From: a virus
Virus genome (UHGV): UHGV-0114729
Strand: one strand, 5' to 3'
DNA: 45,034 nucleotides
Part shown: piece by piece, positions 23,257 through 29,309 of the stretch
Layout: the number at the start of each line of letters is the position of its first letter
Position numbering within the stretch: position 1 is the stretch's first letter
Translations under genes and position numbers: made by a program
Notes under the pieces: model-generated
What the model was told of the DNA's origin: nothing
The model's database searches: none
The model's input: the letters and a program-made list of their open reading frames with translations, nothing else

Positions 23257-23776
23257 TCAGCAACCCCGGTATTATTTCATCCAGCGCAGCTGCTTTGTTC
23301 ATGGCTTTAATGATGTCCTTCTTGAGGAAATCAATATGTCGGTTTTCCAGCTCCGGGAAGCGCCGCTGAACCGACAGAGGAACTCCATCAAGAATGCTGG
23401 CTACTTCTCCGGCCATCCGCGACAGCACGAACGTGCAGAATGCGGTTTCCACCACCTCAGCGGAATCTTTTGCATTTTTTAGTTCCTGGGCATCTGCCTG
23501 CGCTCGGGTGAGGCGGTGACGCTCATAGTCAATCGTACCAGGCTGAAGGTCGGATTCCGATGCAAGACGAAGGTCTTCCACCTCCTTCCGTAATTTCTCA
23601 TTCTCAATCGCCGCGTCGCGTGCGGAATACCATTCGATAGCCGCGGAAGATTCATAGAGGACCTCATTACCTTTTCCACCGCCACGTGCTACAGGCATTC
23701 CCTGATCCTGCCAGTTCTGAATGGTTCGCACGCTGACCCCAAATATTTCAGAAAGACGCTTTTTGTTGACCTCCAT
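23231..23776 (-). CDS. nu1: Terminase small subunit
   Basis: 181 aa, near-identical to lambda Nu1 (MEVNKK..IFG.S.RTIQNWQ.QGMPV). Confidence 0.97.
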   Translation of the reverse strand: MEVNKKRLSEIFGVSVRTIQNWQDQGMPVARGGGKGNEVLYESSAAIEWYSARDAAIENEKLRKEVEDLRLASESDLQPGTIDYERHRLTRAQADAQELKNAKDSAEVVETAFCTFVLSRMAGEVASILDGVPLSVQRRFPELENRHIDFLKKDIIKAMNKAAALDEIIPGLLSEYIEQSG

Positions 23777-23779
23777 AGC

Positions 23780-24000
23780 TCACTCCATACACAAAAACAG
23801 AGAAAGGAAACGCCCTCTGGCTATTTAGCCGTTTTTAAGGCTTATCATTTCCTTTCTTTTCAGGGGGTGTTTACAGTTAAAACAATGAATTAGCGAGAAG
23901 AAGAACGGAAACGGCAAATGCCTGAAAATTTTCATAAATAGCGAGAATCTGCGAGGTCGCCGCCCCGTAAGAAGACGATAAGCTGGAAAGGACCCGAATA
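23780..24000 (-). other. cos: cos site (cosB-cosN-cosQ); cosN 12-nt end at 23954-23965
   Basis: The minus strand contains GGGCGGCGACCT, the lambda cohesive end. It is followed by CGCTATTTATGAAAATTTTC, which matches lambda cosB as recalled. Confidence 0.9.
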
Positions 24001-24260
24001 ATGCATACATCCGCATATATTATGGGCCCACACTCAAGCAAATAACTTGTATATGGTCGTAAAATCCTAATAGCATCTACCAAAGCAAACTATTGAAATT
24101 AACCTGTTCATCATGCTTTAAAATAAACCTATGTAATTAACATTTCCACTTAGTTCCAAACTGTTGTGTGTAGCAACTGACACATAGCCAAGAAATAAAT
24201 ATCGTCGCAACTTATATGTCACCCCACTAAACCTTATCAACAAACTTACACGTTAAACAC

Positions 24261-25148
24261 TTAATCCCTATCTAAAATCCCTTTCTTATAAGCCCTAGCA
24301 AGATAAAGTAGGTTACTTTCCTTATCATCACTATGTAAAATCTCAGCATGCTTATCACTTACTTTAATGAATCCCTTCGCAGCCTGCAGAAGCCCCAAAC
24401 CTGTCACCAACGGATTTTCCGTGTCGCTAACACTAATAATCGCTCCTAAAACAATATTAACCATATCGTCAGAACCTGGCATTTCAAAACTTAAATTGTA
24501 GCGATTTAAGAACCAACCTTTATTAATTTCACTAATTCTGTTTATATCTTCCAAGGAATTACGGAAGCGTTCATAAGCCTTTTTTTGAAAAAGCGGCTCA
24601 TCGGGAGCATAAGCAACATCTTGGTATAAGTCATCCAGATAATTATGGAACGCATCATAATCAACTTTATATTTATGCTTAAACTCAAGTATCTGCTCAG
24701 GATGGATATGTGGTCCGGGAACAGGAAGTGCATCAAAGAGTTCAAGTTTTAAGTTCGTATTTCTATCACTTGTCCCATTCCCCCCTATAAATTCCTCTCC
24801 TATCTGATGTAAATTCCAGTCACGCTGAGGCTCATCCTTCCTTAACTTACTAAGTATCTCAACCTGACGTTTTGGGAACTCTATCGGGTACTGATCGCTA
24901 TTGAATCCGATAGACACTACTGGTCTAGACAAAAAGTCCAAACCAATCAATATATCTTCTCGGGGTAATTGAAAATATATTTCTCTTGAGCCTGGAATTA
25001 CTAATCTATCCCAAAAAAGAGTGTAATAATTCAAATCTTCTTCATTCAACCCTCGCGCTGTCTGGAATCCACCAGTGGGCAAAACTTCCGTCATAACAGG
25101 TGAAGCAACAACACATCTTTCCACAATATTCCCCTTAGTAGTTTTCAC
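24261..25148 (-). CDS. Orphan 295-aa protein, AT-rich moron between Rz and cos (function unknown)
   Basis: Long ORF in a visibly AT-rich tract flanked by AT-rich non-coding DNA. The start is uncertain: the track start is GTG with no clear SD. I recognise no motif with confidence. Confidence 0.7.
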   Translation of the reverse strand: MKTTKGNIVERCVVASPVMTEVLPTGGFQTARGLNEEDLNYYTLFWDRLVIPGSREIYFQLPREDILIGLDFLSRPVVSIGFNSDQYPIEFPKRQVEILSKLRKDEPQRDWNLHQIGEEFIGGNGTSDRNTNLKLELFDALPVPGPHIHPEQILEFKHKYKVDYDAFHNYLDDLYQDVAYAPDEPLFQKKAYERFRNSLEDINRISEINKGWFLNRYNLSFEMPGSDDMVNIVLGAIISVSDTENPLVTGLGLLQAAKGFIKVSDKHAEILHSDDKESNLLYLARAYKKGILDRD

Positions 25149-25398
25149 TCAAAAGCTTAGGAGAAAGTAACTATCACACCCACAAAAAAAAGTAAACGAA
25201 AAATACTGTATACTTGATTTGGATTATGAAACTCTATCAGTCACGCTTGTGGCAATAATAAAAATAATCGACAACATCGGAATACCTAATAAACAATCAT
25301 CTCAAAAATGAAATCTACTAGCATTTTTCAGAACGTCTTTTTCATAAACTAGTACATAGAACAGTTTGACTGACTTCATAAAATTTATTTTTCCCTAG

Positions 25399-25920
25399 TT
25401 AATGAGATGCTCGAACATTTTCTATCTCTCGAATCCCTGCAAAGCGCTTGTTGCCCTTTTCGATAAGTGACAGTAACGGTTTTATCCAAAGCACTGCCTG
25501 ACAATATGTCATTGGGCTGGTGGTAACGGCACGATCATCGGCTGAGTTAAGTTTGTCGGTATCGGTGTGCATGGCGCTGGCACGTAAACGGTACGCGTAT
25601 TCGAGCAGCCCACCAGCAATGTCAGCAGGAACAGGCAGATCACAGGTTTTTTCACGGCGGAGAATCTCCCGGTATTCGATAACTGTTTCTTCAGTACTGG
25701 TGTCGATCAGGGAGTTAAGCCTGATGGCATGTTCGGCAACCTGATTGAATCGATTGAAGTTGAATGCCTGGGTGGCGATCACCTGCCCCTGCATAGAATT
25801 GTCGCTTCGCAGAACGTCGTTATCGCTCTGAAGGCTACTGGCGTCGGAGCAACTCTTAACGAGAGCGACCGAAAGGACAGCAATAACAACAACGCCGATA
25901 AGACCCGGATTAATTTTCAT
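25399..25920 (-). CDS. Rz: i-spanin (Rz-like)
   Basis: N-terminal TM (MKINPGLIGVVVIAVLSVALV) with a periplasmic coiled part. The ATG overlaps the endolysin stop (ATGA). Confidence 0.8.
   Translation of the reverse strand: MKINPGLIGVVVIAVLSVALVKSCSDASSLQSDNDVLRSDNSMQGQVIATQAFNFNRFNQVAEHAIRLNSLIDTSTEETVIEYREILRREKTCDLPVPADIAGGLLEYAYRLRASAMHTDTDKLNSADDRAVTTSPMTYCQAVLWIKPLLSLIEKGNKRFAGIREIENVRASH
25509..25655 (-). CDS. Rz1: o-spanin lipoprotein (Rz1-like) embedded in the +1 frame of Rz
   Basis: My own translation gives (GTG)KKPVICLFLLTLLVGCSNTRTVYVPAPCTPIPTNLTQPMIVPLPPAQ*. It has a lipobox (LLVGC), a Pro-rich mature part and GGGAGA upstream. It is below the ORF-track size cut-off. Confidence 0.75.
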   Translation of the reverse strand: MKKPVICLFLLTLLVGCSNTRTVYVPAPCTPIPTNLTQPMIVPLPPAQ

Positions 25921-26465
25921 TGGTCTAACCCCCAGCACGCCAGTGCGCTTTCCTGGTCCCGTCGCTCAACCTGACCATAGCAGCCATTCTTCTGGCCTTT
26001 GGTTAGACGGCAATCACGGCCACCGTCTTTAATCCACCAGCGGATAGCTTCACAGGCTCCTTTCGTATCGCCAGCATTAATTCGCTTATAGAACGTAGAC
26101 GGGAAACATTTTCCGGGGCCGATGTTATATGGGCAGAAAGAAGCGATACCCGCTTTCTGTGGTTCGGTCAGTGGTACTTTGATATTTCGGTCAACCCACG
26201 CCAGCGCCTTGTCGCGTTCAATGGCGTTTACCTGGGCGCATTTCTCAGCTGACAGCTTCATGCCCTGTACTACTGGCTTGCCATCAACCATTGTTGCACC
26301 ACGGCAAATGGTCCAGAGTCCGCCGCCGTCGCGATATGCTGTCAAGCTGTTACCCTCTTTCTCATCCAGAAACTGATCGAGAATCACGGGTGCGGAAGCC
26401 CCGGCAAGAATCAAACCAACGACCGCTGCGCTCAATTTATTCTTCAGCTTTAGAGACATAGCCAT
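25917..26465 (-). CDS. R: SAR endolysin (T4-lysozyme/GH24 type, R21-like)
   Basis: N-terminal weakly hydrophobic Gly/Ala-rich signal-anchor-release segment (LSAAVVGLILAGASAPVIL). Catalytic E-x8-D-x5-T (EGNSLTAYRDGGGLWT). Confidence 0.9.
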   Translation of the reverse strand: MAMSLKLKNKLSAAVVGLILAGASAPVILDQFLDEKEGNSLTAYRDGGGLWTICRGATMVDGKPVVQGMKLSAEKCAQVNAIERDKALAWVDRNIKVPLTEPQKAGIASFCPYNIGPGKCFPSTFYKRINAGDTKGACEAIRWWIKDGGRDCRLTKGQKNGCYGQVERRDQESALACWGLDQ

Positions 26466-26715
26466 TGCGCCGATCCTCCCGTTCTTTCCAGCGGAAATAC
26501 CAGTTCACTGCACAGGTGATTACCGTGCATGCGATACCGACAATAATTGCCCAGTCGCTCAGGCTTAACCCTGCAATTCTGTCGGCCAACATCCAGGACA
26601 CCTCTTTTGCTGTTTTTGCTGTTTCGGCATATGCCTTCGCTGATACACCGCAGCCGGTCAGCGTGGTGCCTGTTCCATATGAAAGTCTGCTGTAAATGGT
26701 GCTCATTCTGGTCAT
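26437..26715 (-). CDS. S: Pinholin (S21-like), dual-start motif MTRM
   Basis: ..YGTGTTLTGCG.. and SLSDWAIIVGIACTVITCAVNWYFRWKEREDRR parallel phage 21 S as recalled. Paired with a SAR endolysin. Confidence 0.8.
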   Translation of the reverse strand: MTRMSTIYSRLSYGTGTTLTGCGVSAKAYAETAKTAKEVSWMLADRIAGLSLSDWAIIVGIACTVITCAVNWYFRWKEREDRRNGYVSKAEE

Positions 26716-26824
26716 AGCCTCACCTCCGATTCTTCGGATGGCGCTGTGTGTGTATGAAAAGGATCAGGCTTCACTGGCTGGATTTATCAACAAAGCACGT
26801 AGCGGATGATTCCCGGAAGCCTGA

Positions 26825-26851
26825 AATAAAAAAGCCCCGCTATTACGGGGC
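26825..26851 (-). terminator. Rho-independent terminator after the HEPN-like moron
   Basis: Minus strand reads GCCCCG-taatag-CGGGGC followed by TTTTTTATTT. Confidence 0.8.
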
Positions 26852-26865
26852 AGTTAATAGAATTA

Positions 26866-26893
26866 TAAAGTTTAAAAGTTTAAAAGTTTAAAG
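26866..26893. repeat. 8-bp tandem repeat (TAAAAGTT, about 3.5 copies) spanning the stop codon of the 213-aa gene
   Basis: Read directly: taaagtt taaaagtt taaaagtt taaagg. Confidence 0.9.
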
Positions 26894-27521
26894 GAACCAT
26901 AAAGCTACCAGGCTCTGCACCAGCTTCTTTATTTATTTCTTTACGGATTACCTCATTAATCTGAAAAGCCTCATTGTATACTTTTTCTAAGTTAATTGAC
27001 GCCTTCATATTATAGTATGTTTTTTCCTCACAAACATATAACCTTATCGGATATGGCCTAGGGTTGATTGCCTTCCAGTGGGAGATCACAAAATTATAAA
27101 CTGCAATACCATGACCTTTCATCTTCCCTGCTGTAACATCAATGTTTAGCTGATCTAAATACTCATCGAAGTGTTGCAAGGTGTTTCTCACCCTCACGGA
27201 ATTAATTTCCTTAATTTCAATATCTTTTATTTTTTCTTGAAGGTAATTACTTCGCTTAATATGCAATCTGAATTGTTCAGGGGATTCTTCCCTAGTCTGA
27301 TTTTTAGGAACTGCGATTAGTTTCTTGACGTTAGCCGCATCTGAAAGAATACTATTTATTAATATATGAATATTGTAATCAATTTTAAAGTAGTAACCAG
27401 CATCAGGAAGTGGTGTCTCATGAAAGAGCTCTTCACAGCGTGTTTTTATCGAATGAGTTAACAACCATAATTCGTGCAAATAAATAAAATTAAGTTTCAT
27501 TTGCTCAAAGGTTTTTGACAT
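26880..27521 (-). CDS. HEPN-like (Rx4H) 213-aa protein, AbiU2/AbiV-style candidate abortive-infection RNase; AT-rich moron
   Basis: Strong RBS (AAGGAG, 8 nt upstream). Motif VRNTLQHFDEY matches the R-N-x3-H HEPN signature. All-helical-looking, very AT-rich, with its own terminator. Confidence 0.75.
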   Translation of the reverse strand: MSKTFEQMKLNFIYLHELWLLTHSIKTRCEELFHETPLPDAGYYFKIDYNIHILINSILSDAANVKKLIAVPKNQTREESPEQFRLHIKRSNYLQEKIKDIEIKEINSVRVRNTLQHFDEYLDQLNIDVTAGKMKGHGIAVYNFVISHWKAINPRPYPIRLYVCEEKTYYNMKASINLEKVYNEAFQINEVIRKEINKEAGAEPGSFMVPLNF

Positions 27522-27854
27522 AGCGAACTCTCCTTTTCAATAGTCCGCTTTTATAGCATTTACATAAGGGGCCTGTGAATTACTATTCTGTTGCTTACCA
27601 CACTCTCGCAGTGGCCGCGCTCATGCCTTTGAGACCGTAGTCAGGGGTATCTCATGAATCCCTCACCTCTAACCGGAGAACGATTGGCGATCGTTCTGGA
27701 GTACCGGCACACCTCTTCTTTATTAACCCTAACCAGTGTGTGTTGCAGTTCGTACCTGCATCTGGCTCTCATGGAGACTCGGGACCGCATCACGACTGCG
27801 GATTTGCCTATCGGCTGCGGTCTATCCGTTTACTGGTGCATTTTCTTACCCTCC

Positions 27855-27892
27855 AGAAACGCAAAAGCCCCACGGTGTTATCCGCAGGGCTT
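27855..27892 (-). terminator. tR'-like terminator just downstream of the late promoter
   Basis: Minus strand reads AAGCCC...GGGCTTTTGCGTTT. Confidence 0.6.
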
Positions 27893-27923
27893 GAAACGAA
27901 GGCATTAACCCATCGTTGGGACA

Positions 27924-27951
27924 AAATTAACACAGATTCGGGAAAAGTAAA
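27924..27951 (-). promoter_or_regulatory. Candidate late promoter pR' (Q-modified)
   Basis: Minus strand reads TTTACT-N16-TAATTT with a TGt extended -10, immediately downstream of Q. Found by eye only. Confidence 0.45.
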
Positions 27952-27988
27952 TAGCCCGCAACAAAATCGCAGGCTATCGCTACAGGCG

Positions 27989-28819
27989 TTACCGCGTTAT
28001 CTGCTTAAGCTGTTTTTCTGCCCATGCCTCTTCAATATCGAATTTCGTAATCAGCTGATCATAGAACGGTTTAACGGACTTCTTCCACGTATCCAGGCTG
28101 ATTACATCCGTAATCTGGCAAACAGCTGCGTGGGCCTCAGTTGACGGGATGCGCTCATATCCGCGACCGCCACAGCGCTTGCAGGTGCTGAATACTGGAA
28201 CGCCTTGCTGCTTCGTTTCCTTCTGATTCACCGCTTTCCCACGGCCACGGCAATCACTACATGCGCAACTGATGGCTTTTTTCCCTTTGCACTGAGGACA
28301 GAGAACGCGCGTTATCTCTTTTACCTCACGCCTGTTTTGGTGCTGCGAAGGTATCACCTTCAAACCAAACGCTTTTGATGCCTTAATGATTTCTTTTGCA
28401 TGTGCCGGCGTATTGGTTTTCATACTGAATACCTCAGCATCAATAAAGCCCTCACCGTTGCAGCAATCGCACCGTTTTACACTGGCTGCGCTGCGGGAAT
28501 AATCCTCAAATGCGAAGGTGGCCAACTGGTACATCACCTGAGGCTTAACCCCGAAATCCAACTTACGCAGCGCGGCAACCTTGTCACATTTGGTCATCGC
28601 GTACTCAGCCAGCAGTCCGATAGCCCGATCCCGGTCGTTATTGCTTATGCCCATCTTGCCGAGGAAGGCGCTGTAACCCATTGCGGCGCGTTCCTGGGTC
28701 ATGCCCATGGCCGCCATGACATCCGTCCCGGTCAGCGAATCTGAACCAGTGGCGCGCGGAGAGTCGCTAATAAGCGTCGACTTGGCGAAGTGATATTTCA
28801 CGGTGTTTTCGAGGTTCAT
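27989..28819 (-). CDS. Q: Late antiterminator Q (QuuQ-like, with DnaJ-type CxxCxGxG zinc fingers)
   Basis: 276 aa. N-terminus and CPQCKGKK / CSDCRGRG / CKRCGGRG repeats resemble E. coli Qin QuuQ as recalled. Confidence 0.88.
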   Translation of the reverse strand: MNLENTVKYHFAKSTLISDSPRATGSDSLTGTDVMAAMGMTQERAAMGYSAFLGKMGISNNDRDRAIGLLAEYAMTKCDKVAALRKLDFGVKPQVMYQLATFAFEDYSRSAASVKRCDCCNGEGFIDAEVFSMKTNTPAHAKEIIKASKAFGLKVIPSQHQNRREVKEITRVLCPQCKGKKAISCACSDCRGRGKAVNQKETKQQGVPVFSTCKRCGGRGYERIPSTEAHAAVCQITDVISLDTWKKSVKPFYDQLITKFDIEEAWAEKQLKQITR

Positions 28820-28956
28820 TAGGCTGCTCCTGCTGAATGATAGATACGAACAAAATTACGAAGAATGCGATAATCCACCAGCACCGATCCCCGGTAGCGA
28901 TAAATGCGAAGGCGCTGCCAGCGCGCGCGGAGTATCTCAAGCGTTTCTGGCTTCAT
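28819..28956 (-). CDS. Small 45-aa ORF translationally coupled to rusA (ATGA) and Q (TAATG)
   Basis: My own translation gives MKPETLEILRARWQRLRIYRYRGSVLVDYRILRNFVRIYHSAGAA*. Supported by overlaps at both ends and its NinH-like position. Confidence 0.4.
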   Translation of the reverse strand: MKPETLEILRARWQRLRIYRYRGSVLVDYRILRNFVRIYHSAGAA

Positions 28957-29309
28957 TTGGCCTCCTCAATAATGATTTGCCCGGTTTCTCCCCAGATTTT
29001 GGTAACCCGTCCGTCCCAGACATGGCTATCCTCGTCAAACACTGCATCCAGCAAAGCTTTTTCCAGGTTGTCTTTGTCCGGCTTTTGTCGATGTGGCTTG
29101 CCGACATATTGCGCCCGCTTTGCCTTACTCCAGCTCTTTGGCATGGGGATAACGAACGTGACGTGATATCCGGACTCAGGCAGACGGATGCCGAGCAACC
29201 TGACCTGTTCTTTGTAAGCCCAGTACGCTGCCGTTGCTGGCCGTTTATGCCATCGGTCACGCTGAGTCATCCTGGGCTTGCCAATCGGCGTAATTTCGTA
29301 AATTTTCAT
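28953..29309 (-). CDS. rusA: Holliday-junction resolvase RusA
   Basis: 118 aa with the PDKDNLEKALLDAV catalytic-Asp motif. Confidence 0.88.
   Translation of the reverse strand: MKIYEITPIGKPRMTQRDRWHKRPATAAYWAYKEQVRLLGIRLPESGYHVTFVIPMPKSWSKAKRAQYVGKPHRQKPDKDNLEKALLDAVFDEDSHVWDGRVTKIWGETGQIIIEEAK

Follow-up and report, generated by a model that had tools for sequence, protein, structure and literature searches.

A candidate solo HEPN-like RNase encoded by a moron cassette between Q and the holin gene of an mEp237-like lambdoid phage

HEPN active sites are defined by an Rx4-6H motif in which the arginine is directly followed by a polar N, D or H, and the motif is located at a helix break; many, but not all, HEPN families also have a second acidic residue upstream of the motif, often in the form Ex3[KR] (PMC3710099). 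The superfamily (Pfam clan CL0291; Anantharaman et al. 2013) is further characterized by an up-and-down bundle of four helices, with the motif at a distorted helix end ahead of the last core helix, and by a metal-independent RNase activity that requires the R and H and is usually sited at a dimer interface. The closest described system for the locus analyzed here is HepS, a solo, partner-less HEPN abortive-infection protein of the Salmonella prophage Gifsy-1 (PDB 9OIJ and 9OIK), whose family was defined by its authors via PSI-BLAST (PMC13043305). HepS has more than 200 aa with R100-H105 as its motif, is non-toxic at rest and becomes activated by a phage protein; its trigger is the siphovirus tail-tip protein J, and tRNA anticodon loops are cleaved (PMC13043305). 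Within the set of one-gene HEPN systems examined here, it is the sole member with an understood mechanism. Cargo genes of prophages are also known from the P2 gpQ-gpA interval, the old/tin antiviral hotspot, which houses non-defense cargo as well (PMC9122126).

The DNA stretch of this analysis, called the window in the following, comprises the 45,034 nt of the virus genome UHGV-0114729. From its letters alone, an original prediction had read a 213-aa ORF as the moron-encoded gene of an HEPN-like RNase, and had pointed to a Salmonella prophage HEPN protein, which is the HepS introduced above. In the gene region, phage mEp237 is ~99.8% identical to the window, and its hypothetical protein mEp237_056 shows 99.5% identity to the 213-aa protein. 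A literature search by accession numbers yielded no papers. We give about an even chance to the reading that the protein works as a stand-alone HEPN-like RNase in abortive infection or inter-phage competition, encoded in a moron cassette after tR′ of an mEp237-like lambdoid phage. From the comparisons below we infer a defensive role, and we regard the gene as a good candidate for one-gene anti-phage defense.

All oriented features of the locus lie on the minus strand. The upstream neighbor is the gene of the antiterminator Q (276 aa, 27989..28819; Pfam Antiterm PF03589, E 2e-44), followed by a pR′-like late promoter region at 27912..27951, which was read from the sequence as TTTACT, 16 nt, TAATTT and then AACGAT (27917-27912). 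We take this region to resemble lambda pR′ and its sigma-dependent pause element, and AACGAT(GGG) is also present in locus L049 and in HK225. Downstream of Q and this region, a terminator scan placed a tR′-like terminator at 27865..27892, which forms the upstream border of the slot. The downstream neighbor is the first lysis gene, encoding a 92-aa holin (26437..26715; Pfam Phage_holin_2_3, E 1.7e-11), and its counterpart in mEp237 is likewise annotated as holin. In Shiga-toxin phages, the Q-holin slot carries the stx genes.

Within this slot, the ORF listing gives the 213-aa ORF, the counterpart of mEp237_056, at 26880..27521 with an ATG start codon. Its GC content is 33.6% compared to a window mean of 51.7% (sd 4.6%, 642-nt windows), making it the lowest-GC stretch of its size in the window; only 0.1% of the 642-nt windows are equally low. 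The ribosome-binding site AAGGAG, read from the sequence, is located at 27535-27530, 8 nt 5′ of the ATG, and its AGGAG is kept in homologous cassettes. The peptide VRNTLQHFDE corresponds to residues 111-120, so that the codons of the Rx4H motif R112-N-T-L-Q-H117, likewise read from the sequence, cover 27171..27188 (R112 at 27188-27186, H117 at 27173-27171). The AT-rich composition, the AAGGAG and the VRNTLQHFDE motif of the original prediction were thereby all found again. Upstream of the ribosome-binding site, a promoter-like element of the extended -10 type was read from the sequence at 27550..27579, consisting of TTCACA (27579-27574), an 18-nt spacer with TG at 27558-27557, and TATAAA (27555-27550); it may serve as promoter of the gene. 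In none of the four contexts tested did a simple scan call a sigma-70 promoter ahead of the gene, and it missed this element because its -10 hexamer lacks the usual final T. At the other end, the terminator scan identified an intrinsic terminator of hairpin and T-run at 26824..26851, 28 nt past the stop codon and directly upstream of the holin leader. The stem (26851-26834) has seven pairs, six of them G-C, and a loop of 4 nt, and is followed by TTTTTTATTT to ~26824. Searches of the slot for tRNAs and Rfam families revealed neither a tRNA nor an RNA family.

Comparison of the slot by blastn of the window against loci L048, L049 and L002, together with the annotations, delimited an inserted segment at 26841..27775. 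In the ‘empty’ slot of a prophage of E. coli 2017.02.03CC (L048), which lacks the gene, it is replaced by 176 bp, while the slot outside the cassette is 85-99% identical. In HK225, a different ORF on the opposite strand takes the place of the gene. The inserted segment is nested within a block (26757-27871) shared with L049 at 97.8%, there located between a different Q and different holins. The gene is thus confirmed as a true moron in the Q-holin slot, as originally predicted, both by its presence and absence among related phages and by its deviant composition. The 3′ tail of the tR′-like terminator recurs, as a direct repeat with 79% identity, in the tail of the cassette terminator (repeat family D2; 27853-27871 and 26820-26838), which suggests that cargo may be swapped in this slot via junctions at terminator-like repeats.

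The gene moves as a horizontally acquired cassette of promoter-like leader, ORF and terminator. In eight cassettes from different prophage slots, the core of the leader (TT..C, then AATG.TA) is invariant, with TT..C, 17-18 nt, TGnTATAAn as the conserved promoter-like pattern, and about 75 nt of leader as well as the 3′ hairpin are kept across cassettes; the ORFs that precede this leader in the enterobacterial copies show no relationship among themselves. In homologous cassettes, the hairpin occupies the same 3′ position with changes on both stem arms, and in homologs located in another slot it lies directly 3′ of the ORF. In 31 of 35 loci, the gene has a lower GC content than its surroundings. 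The terminator was originally assigned to the gene itself. Hairpins do follow the ORF in homologous cassettes as well, but related phages without the gene (L048, HK225) likewise have a hairpin terminator just before the holin, which makes it in part a property of the slot. As a portable unit the cassette is small, made up of ~75 nt of leader, ORF and hairpin, and it illustrates clearly how genes of this kind are transferred.

The genomic contexts of the family bear on the question whom the gene serves. Besides the Q-holin slot, it was found on the late-operon strand in the lysis-terminase interval of prophages of Citrobacter, Enterobacter, Kosakonia and Yersinia and of two further prophages from a JGI metagenome (L046) and an NCBI assembly (L047). 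In the latter two, the gene directly upstream is of the Acb2/Tad1 (hairpin) anti-defense type. Two P2-like prophages have the family gene in the old/tin hotspot, with gpQ (portal) on one side and gpA (replication) on the other; the flanking proteins of these prophages are 88-90% identical, but the family alleles only 41%. In other loci, it adjoins an integrase gene (L064) or follows the gene of a Gram-positive endolysin (L065). A few chromosomal neighbors match PADLOC models of defense components (LmuA, PifA, Avs1a and the defense-associated reverse transcriptase DRT) or of the candidate defense proteins PDC-S05 and PDC-S23, and Pfam families among the neighbors include the HigB toxin, the Phd antitoxin and a KAP NTPase. 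An integron test of the proteobacterial small-gene arrays gave no Rfam attC match in 14 loci and as sole finding a tmRNA gene near L023.

Since in every enterobacterial prophage examined the gene lies within the late operon and runs in its direction (Q-holin or lysis-terminase interval), the protein could instead be a late RNase or counter-defense factor under Q control, cutting RNA of the host or a competitor, or an RNA or signal of a defense system, in favor of the phage's own lytic growth and not for protection of the lysogen. The anti-defense gene upstream in L046 and L047 and the lack of a scan-grade promoter upstream of the gene would fit such a phage-serving role. We nevertheless consider it unlikely, because the family is widespread in bacterial and archaeal chromosomes beside unrelated housekeeping, toxin-antitoxin and defense genes, because the P2 gpQ-gpA, integrase-side and post-lysin positions are typical of lysogen-expressed cargo, and because the conserved leader and terminator travel with the gene. 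In addition, a terminator before the holin gene is useful only for Q-independent transcription, which also counts against a purely late function.

The assignment to HEPN was examined at the level of the family. The 213-aa protein has 27 close homologs. In this analysis it serves as founding member of an unnamed family of stand-alone Rx4H proteins, which comprises at least 238 clusters at 50% identity from bacteria and archaea. Nearly all members have 200-250 aa (mostly about 210-250) and align end to end; a repeated word-indexed homolog search with alignment A2 added almost no members. R112, N113 and H117 are invariant in 15 of 15 close homologs. Across 127-134 diverse members, R112 is retained in 99% and H117 likewise in 99%, as the original reading of the motif requires, N113 in 88% (otherwise H or D) and E/Q116 in 94%. 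Further conserved residues are Y14, E17, R90, D123 and Y162, of which R90 in helix 3 is conserved in 98% of the members, and E17 in helix 1 in 91%, with L instead of K/R at position 21. With a mean column identity of 18%, the family is very divergent, and conservation of the Rx4H motif is far more than expected by chance. Judged by the alignments, Rx4H with a polar residue after the arginine is the most conserved feature of the family, and R112-N-T-L-Q-H117 has the form of the HEPN active site. The acidic run HFDEYLD at the motif is not a general feature of HEPN domains and counts against the HEPN reading.

An AlphaFold model of the 213-aa protein, calculated with an alignment of 134 sequences, reached a pLDDT of 96.5 and a pTM of 0.91. 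It contains helices at 11-35, 49-69, 81-97 and 110-130, strands in 140-177, and a final helix at 178-196. According to the secondary-structure assignment, the helix 110-130 is broken exactly at H117. Out of 48,164 PDB chains, the best structural neighbor of the model is an HEPN-clan protein. The viral BFVD structure library gave one meaningful match, an uncharacterized protein of Gordonia phage Madeline. The core is most likely an HEPN-type helical bundle with R112/N113/H117 as putative catalytic motif. In the model, a four-strand beta-sheet is inserted before the last helix.

For the 213-aa protein, no match was obtained in Pfam, NCBIfam or PHROGs, and in PADLOC only a weak, chance-level match to CasR (E 0.004); five family members showed weak, chance-level PADLOC matches to Cas13a models. 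Pfam searches with the 134 members singly, with the HMM consensus and with its N-terminal 125 residues detected no HEPN or Abi family. Searches of the PDB sequences with the profiles A1 and A2 and the 57-column, motif-centered A6 returned no HEPN chain, but noise from a GCN4 coiled coil, LptB and VP2. Significant profile similarity to an established HEPN family was thus not found in the searches run. Of the original claims, HEPN membership finds support in the kept Rx4H motif and the closest PDB neighbor, but these searches gave no profile link to a curated HEPN or Abi family, and the models of AbiU2, AbiV and AbiD/F, which the original prediction had named, were not matched.

One may also think of a non-catalytic helical bundle with a binding, regulatory or sponge function, in which a ligand or partner is contacted by the conserved R, N, H and acidic residues, and the likeness to HEPN is convergent. 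To this we assign a small probability: at a mean column identity as low as that of the family, 99% of the members retain Rx4H at precisely this spacing, the arginine being followed by N, H or D, the motif lies at a helix break as in HEPN domains, and the best structural neighbor belongs to the HEPN clan.

The original prediction had noted that no antitoxin ORF is adjacent to the gene, and the absence of a partner proved to be a property of the family. There is no conserved neighbor gene in 37 genome loci and no conserved antitoxin or partner in ~50 loci, no HepT-like ORF was found in the loci of the family, and no nucleotidyltransferase is among the neighbor families listed (25 of 59 matched). 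As in the HepS family, the members are encoded by stand-alone genes of less than 250 codons without conserved partner, often on prophages. A 50-aa GTG ORF at 27641-27793 was considered as antitoxin and rejected, being absent upstream of every homolog. That the protein is the toxin of an unrecognized toxin-antitoxin or addiction module stabilizing the prophage, with a small RNA or tiny leader ORF as antitoxin, is highly improbable. HEPN toxins do often occur in toxin-antitoxin pairs (e.g. HepT-MntA and RnlA-RnlB), HigB- and Phd-type genes lie near some homologs, and the inserted block contains ~180 nt of non-coding, GC-normal DNA (27598-27775). Against this reading, no adjacent ORF is conserved in the ~50 loci, and the ORFs found upstream bear no relation to each other. 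The region 26000-29000 has no Rfam match and no ToxI-like tandem repeats, the single repeat detected being an 8-nt AAAGTTTA at the stop codon. In other slots, the gene is accompanied only by the ~75 nt of leader and not by the 27598-27775 segment.

In the preferred reading of a solo HEPN-like RNase, the 213-aa protein would be a metal-independent RNase working alone as an effector of abortive infection or inter-phage competition. In the lysogen, the gene would be expressed from its own weak promoter, and Q-dependent late transcription would contribute additional expression. Without an antitoxin, the protein would be held inactive by its own resting oligomeric state, and a component of the infecting phage would switch it on, as shown for HepS. 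Going beyond this, we tentatively propose, while thinking it somewhat more probably wrong than right, that the family represents HepS-independent single-protein HEPN immune sensors, in which the inserted beta-sheet senses the phage and an inert form changes to an RNA-cutting oligomer, and which have been captured repeatedly by lambdoid and P2-like prophages as promoter-gene-terminator cassettes. If the preferred reading is confirmed, the one-gene HEPN abortive-infection systems would gain a family so far without annotation, with at least 238 clusters from bacteria and archaea. Neither Pfam nor NCBIfam, PHROGs or PADLOC recognizes this family, so that current defense-finding pipelines would miss it. 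As both mEp237 and E. coli, its host, can be handled easily, the hypothesis is directly testable.

Compared to known systems, the family differs from several HEPN groups. The lactococcal AbiV, AbiU2, AbiD/AbiF and AbiJ are predicted or shown HEPN RNases of one- or two-gene abortive-infection systems on mobile elements, and neither the 213-aa protein nor the 134 members match the respective Pfam and PADLOC models. HepT-MntA, a type II toxin-antitoxin system of a DUF86 HEPN protein and a minimal nucleotidyltransferase (7AE2, 1YLM), has an adjacent nucleotidyltransferase antitoxin, whereas none is among the neighbor families listed for the loci of the 213-aa family; there is also no Pfam DUF86 match, and the 213-aa protein is ~70 aa longer than HepT and has the beta-sheet insert. 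The integron cassette HEPN protein Vpc_cass2 (3JRT; PMC3710099, PMC3548836) shares only 11% identity and no profile match with the 213-aa protein. It has 166 aa and is all-alpha with the helix order 1-2-3-alpha′-alpha″-4, where the 213-aa family has its four-strand sheet, and in contrast to this cassette protein the family lacks an Rfam attC or integron signature in 14 loci.

Like lambdoid morons, the gene is additional to the conserved phage genes on either side, deviates in composition, and comes with a terminator and a promoter-like leader; its slot holds other cargo in related phages. With the cargo of the P2 old/tin hotspot, family members share the gpQ-gpA position, a location that amounts to guilt by association only. 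The likeness to HepS is the closest, and it was drawn by description, since no ORF with the R100-H105 motif was found in the LT2 Gifsy-1 sequence NC_010392; we regard HepS as a probable functional analog rather than an evident homolog. Both are single-gene, partner-less, prophage-encoded proteins of just over 200 aa with the Rx4H motif in the middle of the protein (R100-H105 in HepS, R112-H117 in the 213-aa protein), lambdoid prophages carry both of them in accessory slots, and the two families each range from Firmicutes to Enterobacteriaceae. Finally, beta-strands outside the HEPN core join in trigger sensing of HepS, and an extra beta-sheet is predicted for the 213-aa protein.

The open reading frame (ORF) under study, a minus-strand gene of 213 aa with an ATG start (26880..27521; ORF listing), has a GC content of 33.6% compared with 51.7% for the window, and in the GC profile it is the lowest-GC stretch of 642 nt, about 4 standard deviations under the mean. 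An AAGGAG ribosome-binding site was read from the sequence 8 nt upstream of the ATG on the minus strand, and the terminator scan detected a minus-strand hairpin 3′ of the stop codon (stem 26851-26834, T-run to ~26824), whose stem has 7 pairs, 6 of them G-C. The peptide VRNTLQHFDE occupies residues 111-120, with R112 and H117 forming the Rx4H motif. Thereby, ORF listing, GC profile and scan bore out all features that the original prediction had described as visible: ORF, AT-richness, ribosome-binding site, terminator and motif. A tandem-repeat search also detected a perfect 8-nt repeat, AAAGTTTA, in 3.2 copies across the stop codon (26867-26892); as coding-strand sequence it is a threefold TAAACTTT that encodes ...LNF*, and L049, a prophage carrying the same block, has it too.

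Over this region, the window and Enterobacteria phage mEp237 are 99.8% identical; the phage counterpart, mEp237_056, is annotated as 'hypothetical protein' and is flanked by 'late gene regulator Q' and 'holin'. In the window, Pfam identified Q (Antiterm family; 27989-28819, minus strand) as upstream and the holin (26437-26715, minus strand) as downstream neighbor, so that the predicted placement between Q/pR′ and holin was correct. Two terminator-like hairpins were found in the interval between Q and the ORF by the terminator scan, and since the one at 27892-27865, at the tR′ position, precedes the gene, the latter is the first ORF past tR′. Directly ahead of this hairpin we read TTTACT, 16 nt, TAATTT and then AACGAT, which we take as a lead for its resemblance to lambda pR′ and its sigma-dependent pause signal. 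Farther along the strand, after the endolysin gene, an ORF of 179 aa (25399-25938, minus strand) contains in another frame one of 48 aa (25509-25655, minus strand; both ORF listing), which begins with MKKPVICLFLLTLLVGCSNT, a lipoprotein signal with lipobox cysteine; judged from sequence, the pair has the classic embedded Rz/Rz1 spanin arrangement. Immediately downstream of Rz, there is a second AT-rich moron (36-40% GC; AT-rich island ~23650-25650), a 295-aa ORF (24261-25148, minus strand) matching Pfam DUF6236 (E 7e-16) and phrog_23128 (E 1e-25), two families whose function is unknown. At this position mEp237 carries other small ORFs; the window is therefore a relative of mEp237 and not mEp237 itself.

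The gene is a mobile cassette, in agreement with its designation as a moron. The E. coli 2017.02.03CC prophage L048 is 98.6% identical to the window in the holin region and 84.7% identical in the Q/tR′ region, and lacks 26841-27775, with 176 bp in its place. Phage HK225 has a different ORF on the opposite strand in the same slot, and in L049 the stretch 26757-27871 recurs at 97.8% identity, flanked by another Q (ydfT type) and by other holins. The observed junctions coincide with a direct repeat of 19 nt (79% identical), made up of the 3′ tails of tR′ (27853-27871) and of the cassette terminator (26820-26838). Of 50,697 phage records, only that of mEp237 has the gene, and 7 of 5,426 complete E. 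coli genomes contain the whole block. A hairpin, GCCTCGCTTATGCGGGGCTT (L048 1620-1660), is kept in the 'empty' slot of L048 and differs at one position from the hairpin 3′ of the homologue in L053, GCCTCGCTTATTCGGGGCTT (L053 4660-4690), located in a different slot; cargo may be exchanged by recombination at terminators, or L048 may have arisen by deletion. Klebsiella phages RothC and RothD and E. coli E01 share with the window a further block of 36-40 nt at 97.5-100% identity (27598-27636, up to ~27804; CAAAGGCATGAGCGCGGCCACTGCGAGAGTGTGG on the minus strand). The RothC copy occupies the Q-holin slot directly upstream of tRNA-Ile and tRNA-Arg genes, and in the empty slot of L048 a related sequence, whose GCCACT/AGTGGC stem is perfect, precedes the terminator. 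This block, for which neither an Rfam nor a tRNA match was obtained, may be what is left of a tRNA region or else a conserved RNA element of the late leader.

Leader and terminator travel with the gene. About 75 nt upstream are kept at 79-94% among most enterobacterial cassettes, which occupy a different slot, and a core of TT..C, 17-18 nt, AATG.TA and then AGGAG is invariant in all eight sequences compared; the window has TTCACA, 18 nt, TG-n-TATAAA. The leader reads as a putative extended -10 promoter. A simple promoter scan did not call it, as its -10 is missing the final T, and the promoter is therefore treated as putative. The hairpin 3′ of the stop codon occurs in the window, L050 and L053, both arms of its stem showing changes; it is weaker in L055 and farther downstream in L047. 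A terminator right before the holin is useful only for transcription not modified by Q, which favors a gene expressed in the lysogen, its terminator being read through in late growth.

A word-indexed search yielded 27 relatives, all of ~213 aa, from Escherichia, Citrobacter, Enterobacter, Kosakonia and Yersinia, and two further ones at 42% identity. By exhaustive profile search, 238 clusters (50% identity) were obtained at E up to 0.001, 57 of them at E up to 1e-30, nearly all of 200-250 aa with end-to-end matches. Genome matches covered Gamma-, Beta-, Epsilon- and Deltaproteobacteria, Bacillota, Actinomycetota, Chloroflexia, Bacteroidota and Thermoplasmata archaea, and in 31 of 35 loci the family gene has a lower GC content than its surroundings. 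Prophages of Enterobacter, Citrobacter, Kosakonia and Yersinia, and likewise L046 (from a JGI metagenome) and L047 (from an NCBI assembly), have the homologue (identity 55-69%, but 46-47% in Yersinia) between lysis and HNH/terminase genes on the late-operon strand. On IMG/VR contigs, one copy is beside an integrase (L064) and another follows a Gram-positive endolysin at the contig end (L065). In a Burkholderiaceae genome (locus L023, 2874-3262), ~2.7 kb separate the family member from the gene for tmRNA, where islands and prophages classically integrate. In the P2-like prophages L061 and L063, the family gene lies between the genes for portal (gpQ) and replication protein A (gpA) (L061 4782-7035; L063 4526-5693), an interval known as the cos-proximal old/tin hotspot of antiviral systems (PMC9122126). 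The terminase, portal and gpA proteins of both are 88-90% identical compared with just 41% for the family alleles, so the slot was filled twice or has turned over. The L061 hotspot has two extra ORFs (236 and 185 aa), the larger of which, from its DPPY motif, looks like a DNA methyltransferase.

In L046 and L047 (4638-4931), the gene immediately upstream of the family member encodes a 97-aa protein with an Acb2/Tad1 hairpin domain (PF24729) of the anti-CBASS/anti-Thoeris sponge type, and a probable counter-defence gene and a candidate defence gene thus share one accessory slot. This neighbor and the late-operon position would also suit a phage-serving late RNase or counter-defence factor; we consider this unlikely, the terminator and the family's occurrence in chromosomes and archaea being hard to square with it.

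No curated library (Pfam, NCBIfam, PHROGs, PADLOC) recognizes the window protein, and none of 134 members matched any family in a Pfam scan. Among these members, with a mean column identity of 18%, Y14, E17, R90, R112, E/Q116, H117, D123 and Y162 are at least 90% conserved. R112 and H117 reach 99% each, the Rx4H motif being conserved across a divergent family, and position 113 is N in 88%; the hallmark is R-[NHD]-[ST]-[LIV]-[EQ]-H-F-D-E-Y-L-D. Judged by the models of these families, the gene belongs neither to AbiV, AbiU2 or AbiD/F, which the original prediction had named, nor to HepT.

An AlphaFold model from 15 close sequences was mediocre and poorest at the motif, while 134 diverse sequences gave pLDDT 96.5 and pTM 0.91. 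Helices are predicted at residues 11-35, 49-69, 81-97 and 110-130, the last broken exactly at H117, followed by four strands within 140-177 and a final helix at 178-196. The HEPN census places the Rx4-6H motif at a helix end that is often distorted and gives N, D or H as the usual residue after R (PMC3710099); the model agrees on both. In 3JRT, the structure of the integron cassette protein Vpc_cass2, two extra helices interrupt the bundle after the conserved histidine and precede the last helix, whereas here a helix and a sheet fill their place, and we therefore take 178-196 as the probable fourth core helix. The HEPN assignment thus stands in part: Rx4H conservation and the predicted helix break speak for a probable HEPN fold, the missing Pfam match against it. 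The failed profile searches would fit a non-catalytic bundle protein as well, a reading made quite improbable by the near-absolute Rx4H conservation. The only viral predicted structure resembling the model, BFVD A0A514A2X7 of Gordonia phage Madeline (188 aa, uncharacterized; Foldseek E 7e-5, TM 0.57-0.64, 15% identity), may represent an actinophage branch of the family.

An all-against-all comparison of 516 neighboring ORFs from 37 genome loci revealed no family common to more than three loci, and ORFs directly upstream in enterobacterial prophages are mutually unrelated. Pfam and PADLOC scans of two genes on each side of family members returned mixed neighbors: housekeeping, HigB and Phd toxin-antitoxin, resolvase, transposase, integrase and KAP NTPase genes, and also LmuA, PifA, Avs1a and a defence-associated reverse transcriptase (DRT), each type once or twice. 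The original prediction of a single gene with no adjacent antitoxin therefore holds family-wide, beyond this copy. A toxin with an unseen RNA antitoxin is very unlikely, drawing no support from repeats, Rfam or leader conservation.

The observation is confirmed and its interpretation as an RNase defence gene partly supported. In kind, the gene would be a new family inside a category already known, that of solo HEPN effectors of prophages. HepS of Salmonella prophage Gifsy-1 offers the closest worked example: it is a partner-less HEPN protein of just over 200 aa (R100-H105), constitutively expressed and non-toxic, in whose tetramer the active sites are closed until tail-tip protein J binds and tRNA anticodon loops are cut (PMC13043305). 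By analogy, an RNase defence role is plausible for the mEp237 protein: it would be made at low level in the lysogen and rest as an inactive oligomer, until a product of an infecting phage, possibly via the inserted sheet, switched it on to cut RNA and abort infection, as HepS does.
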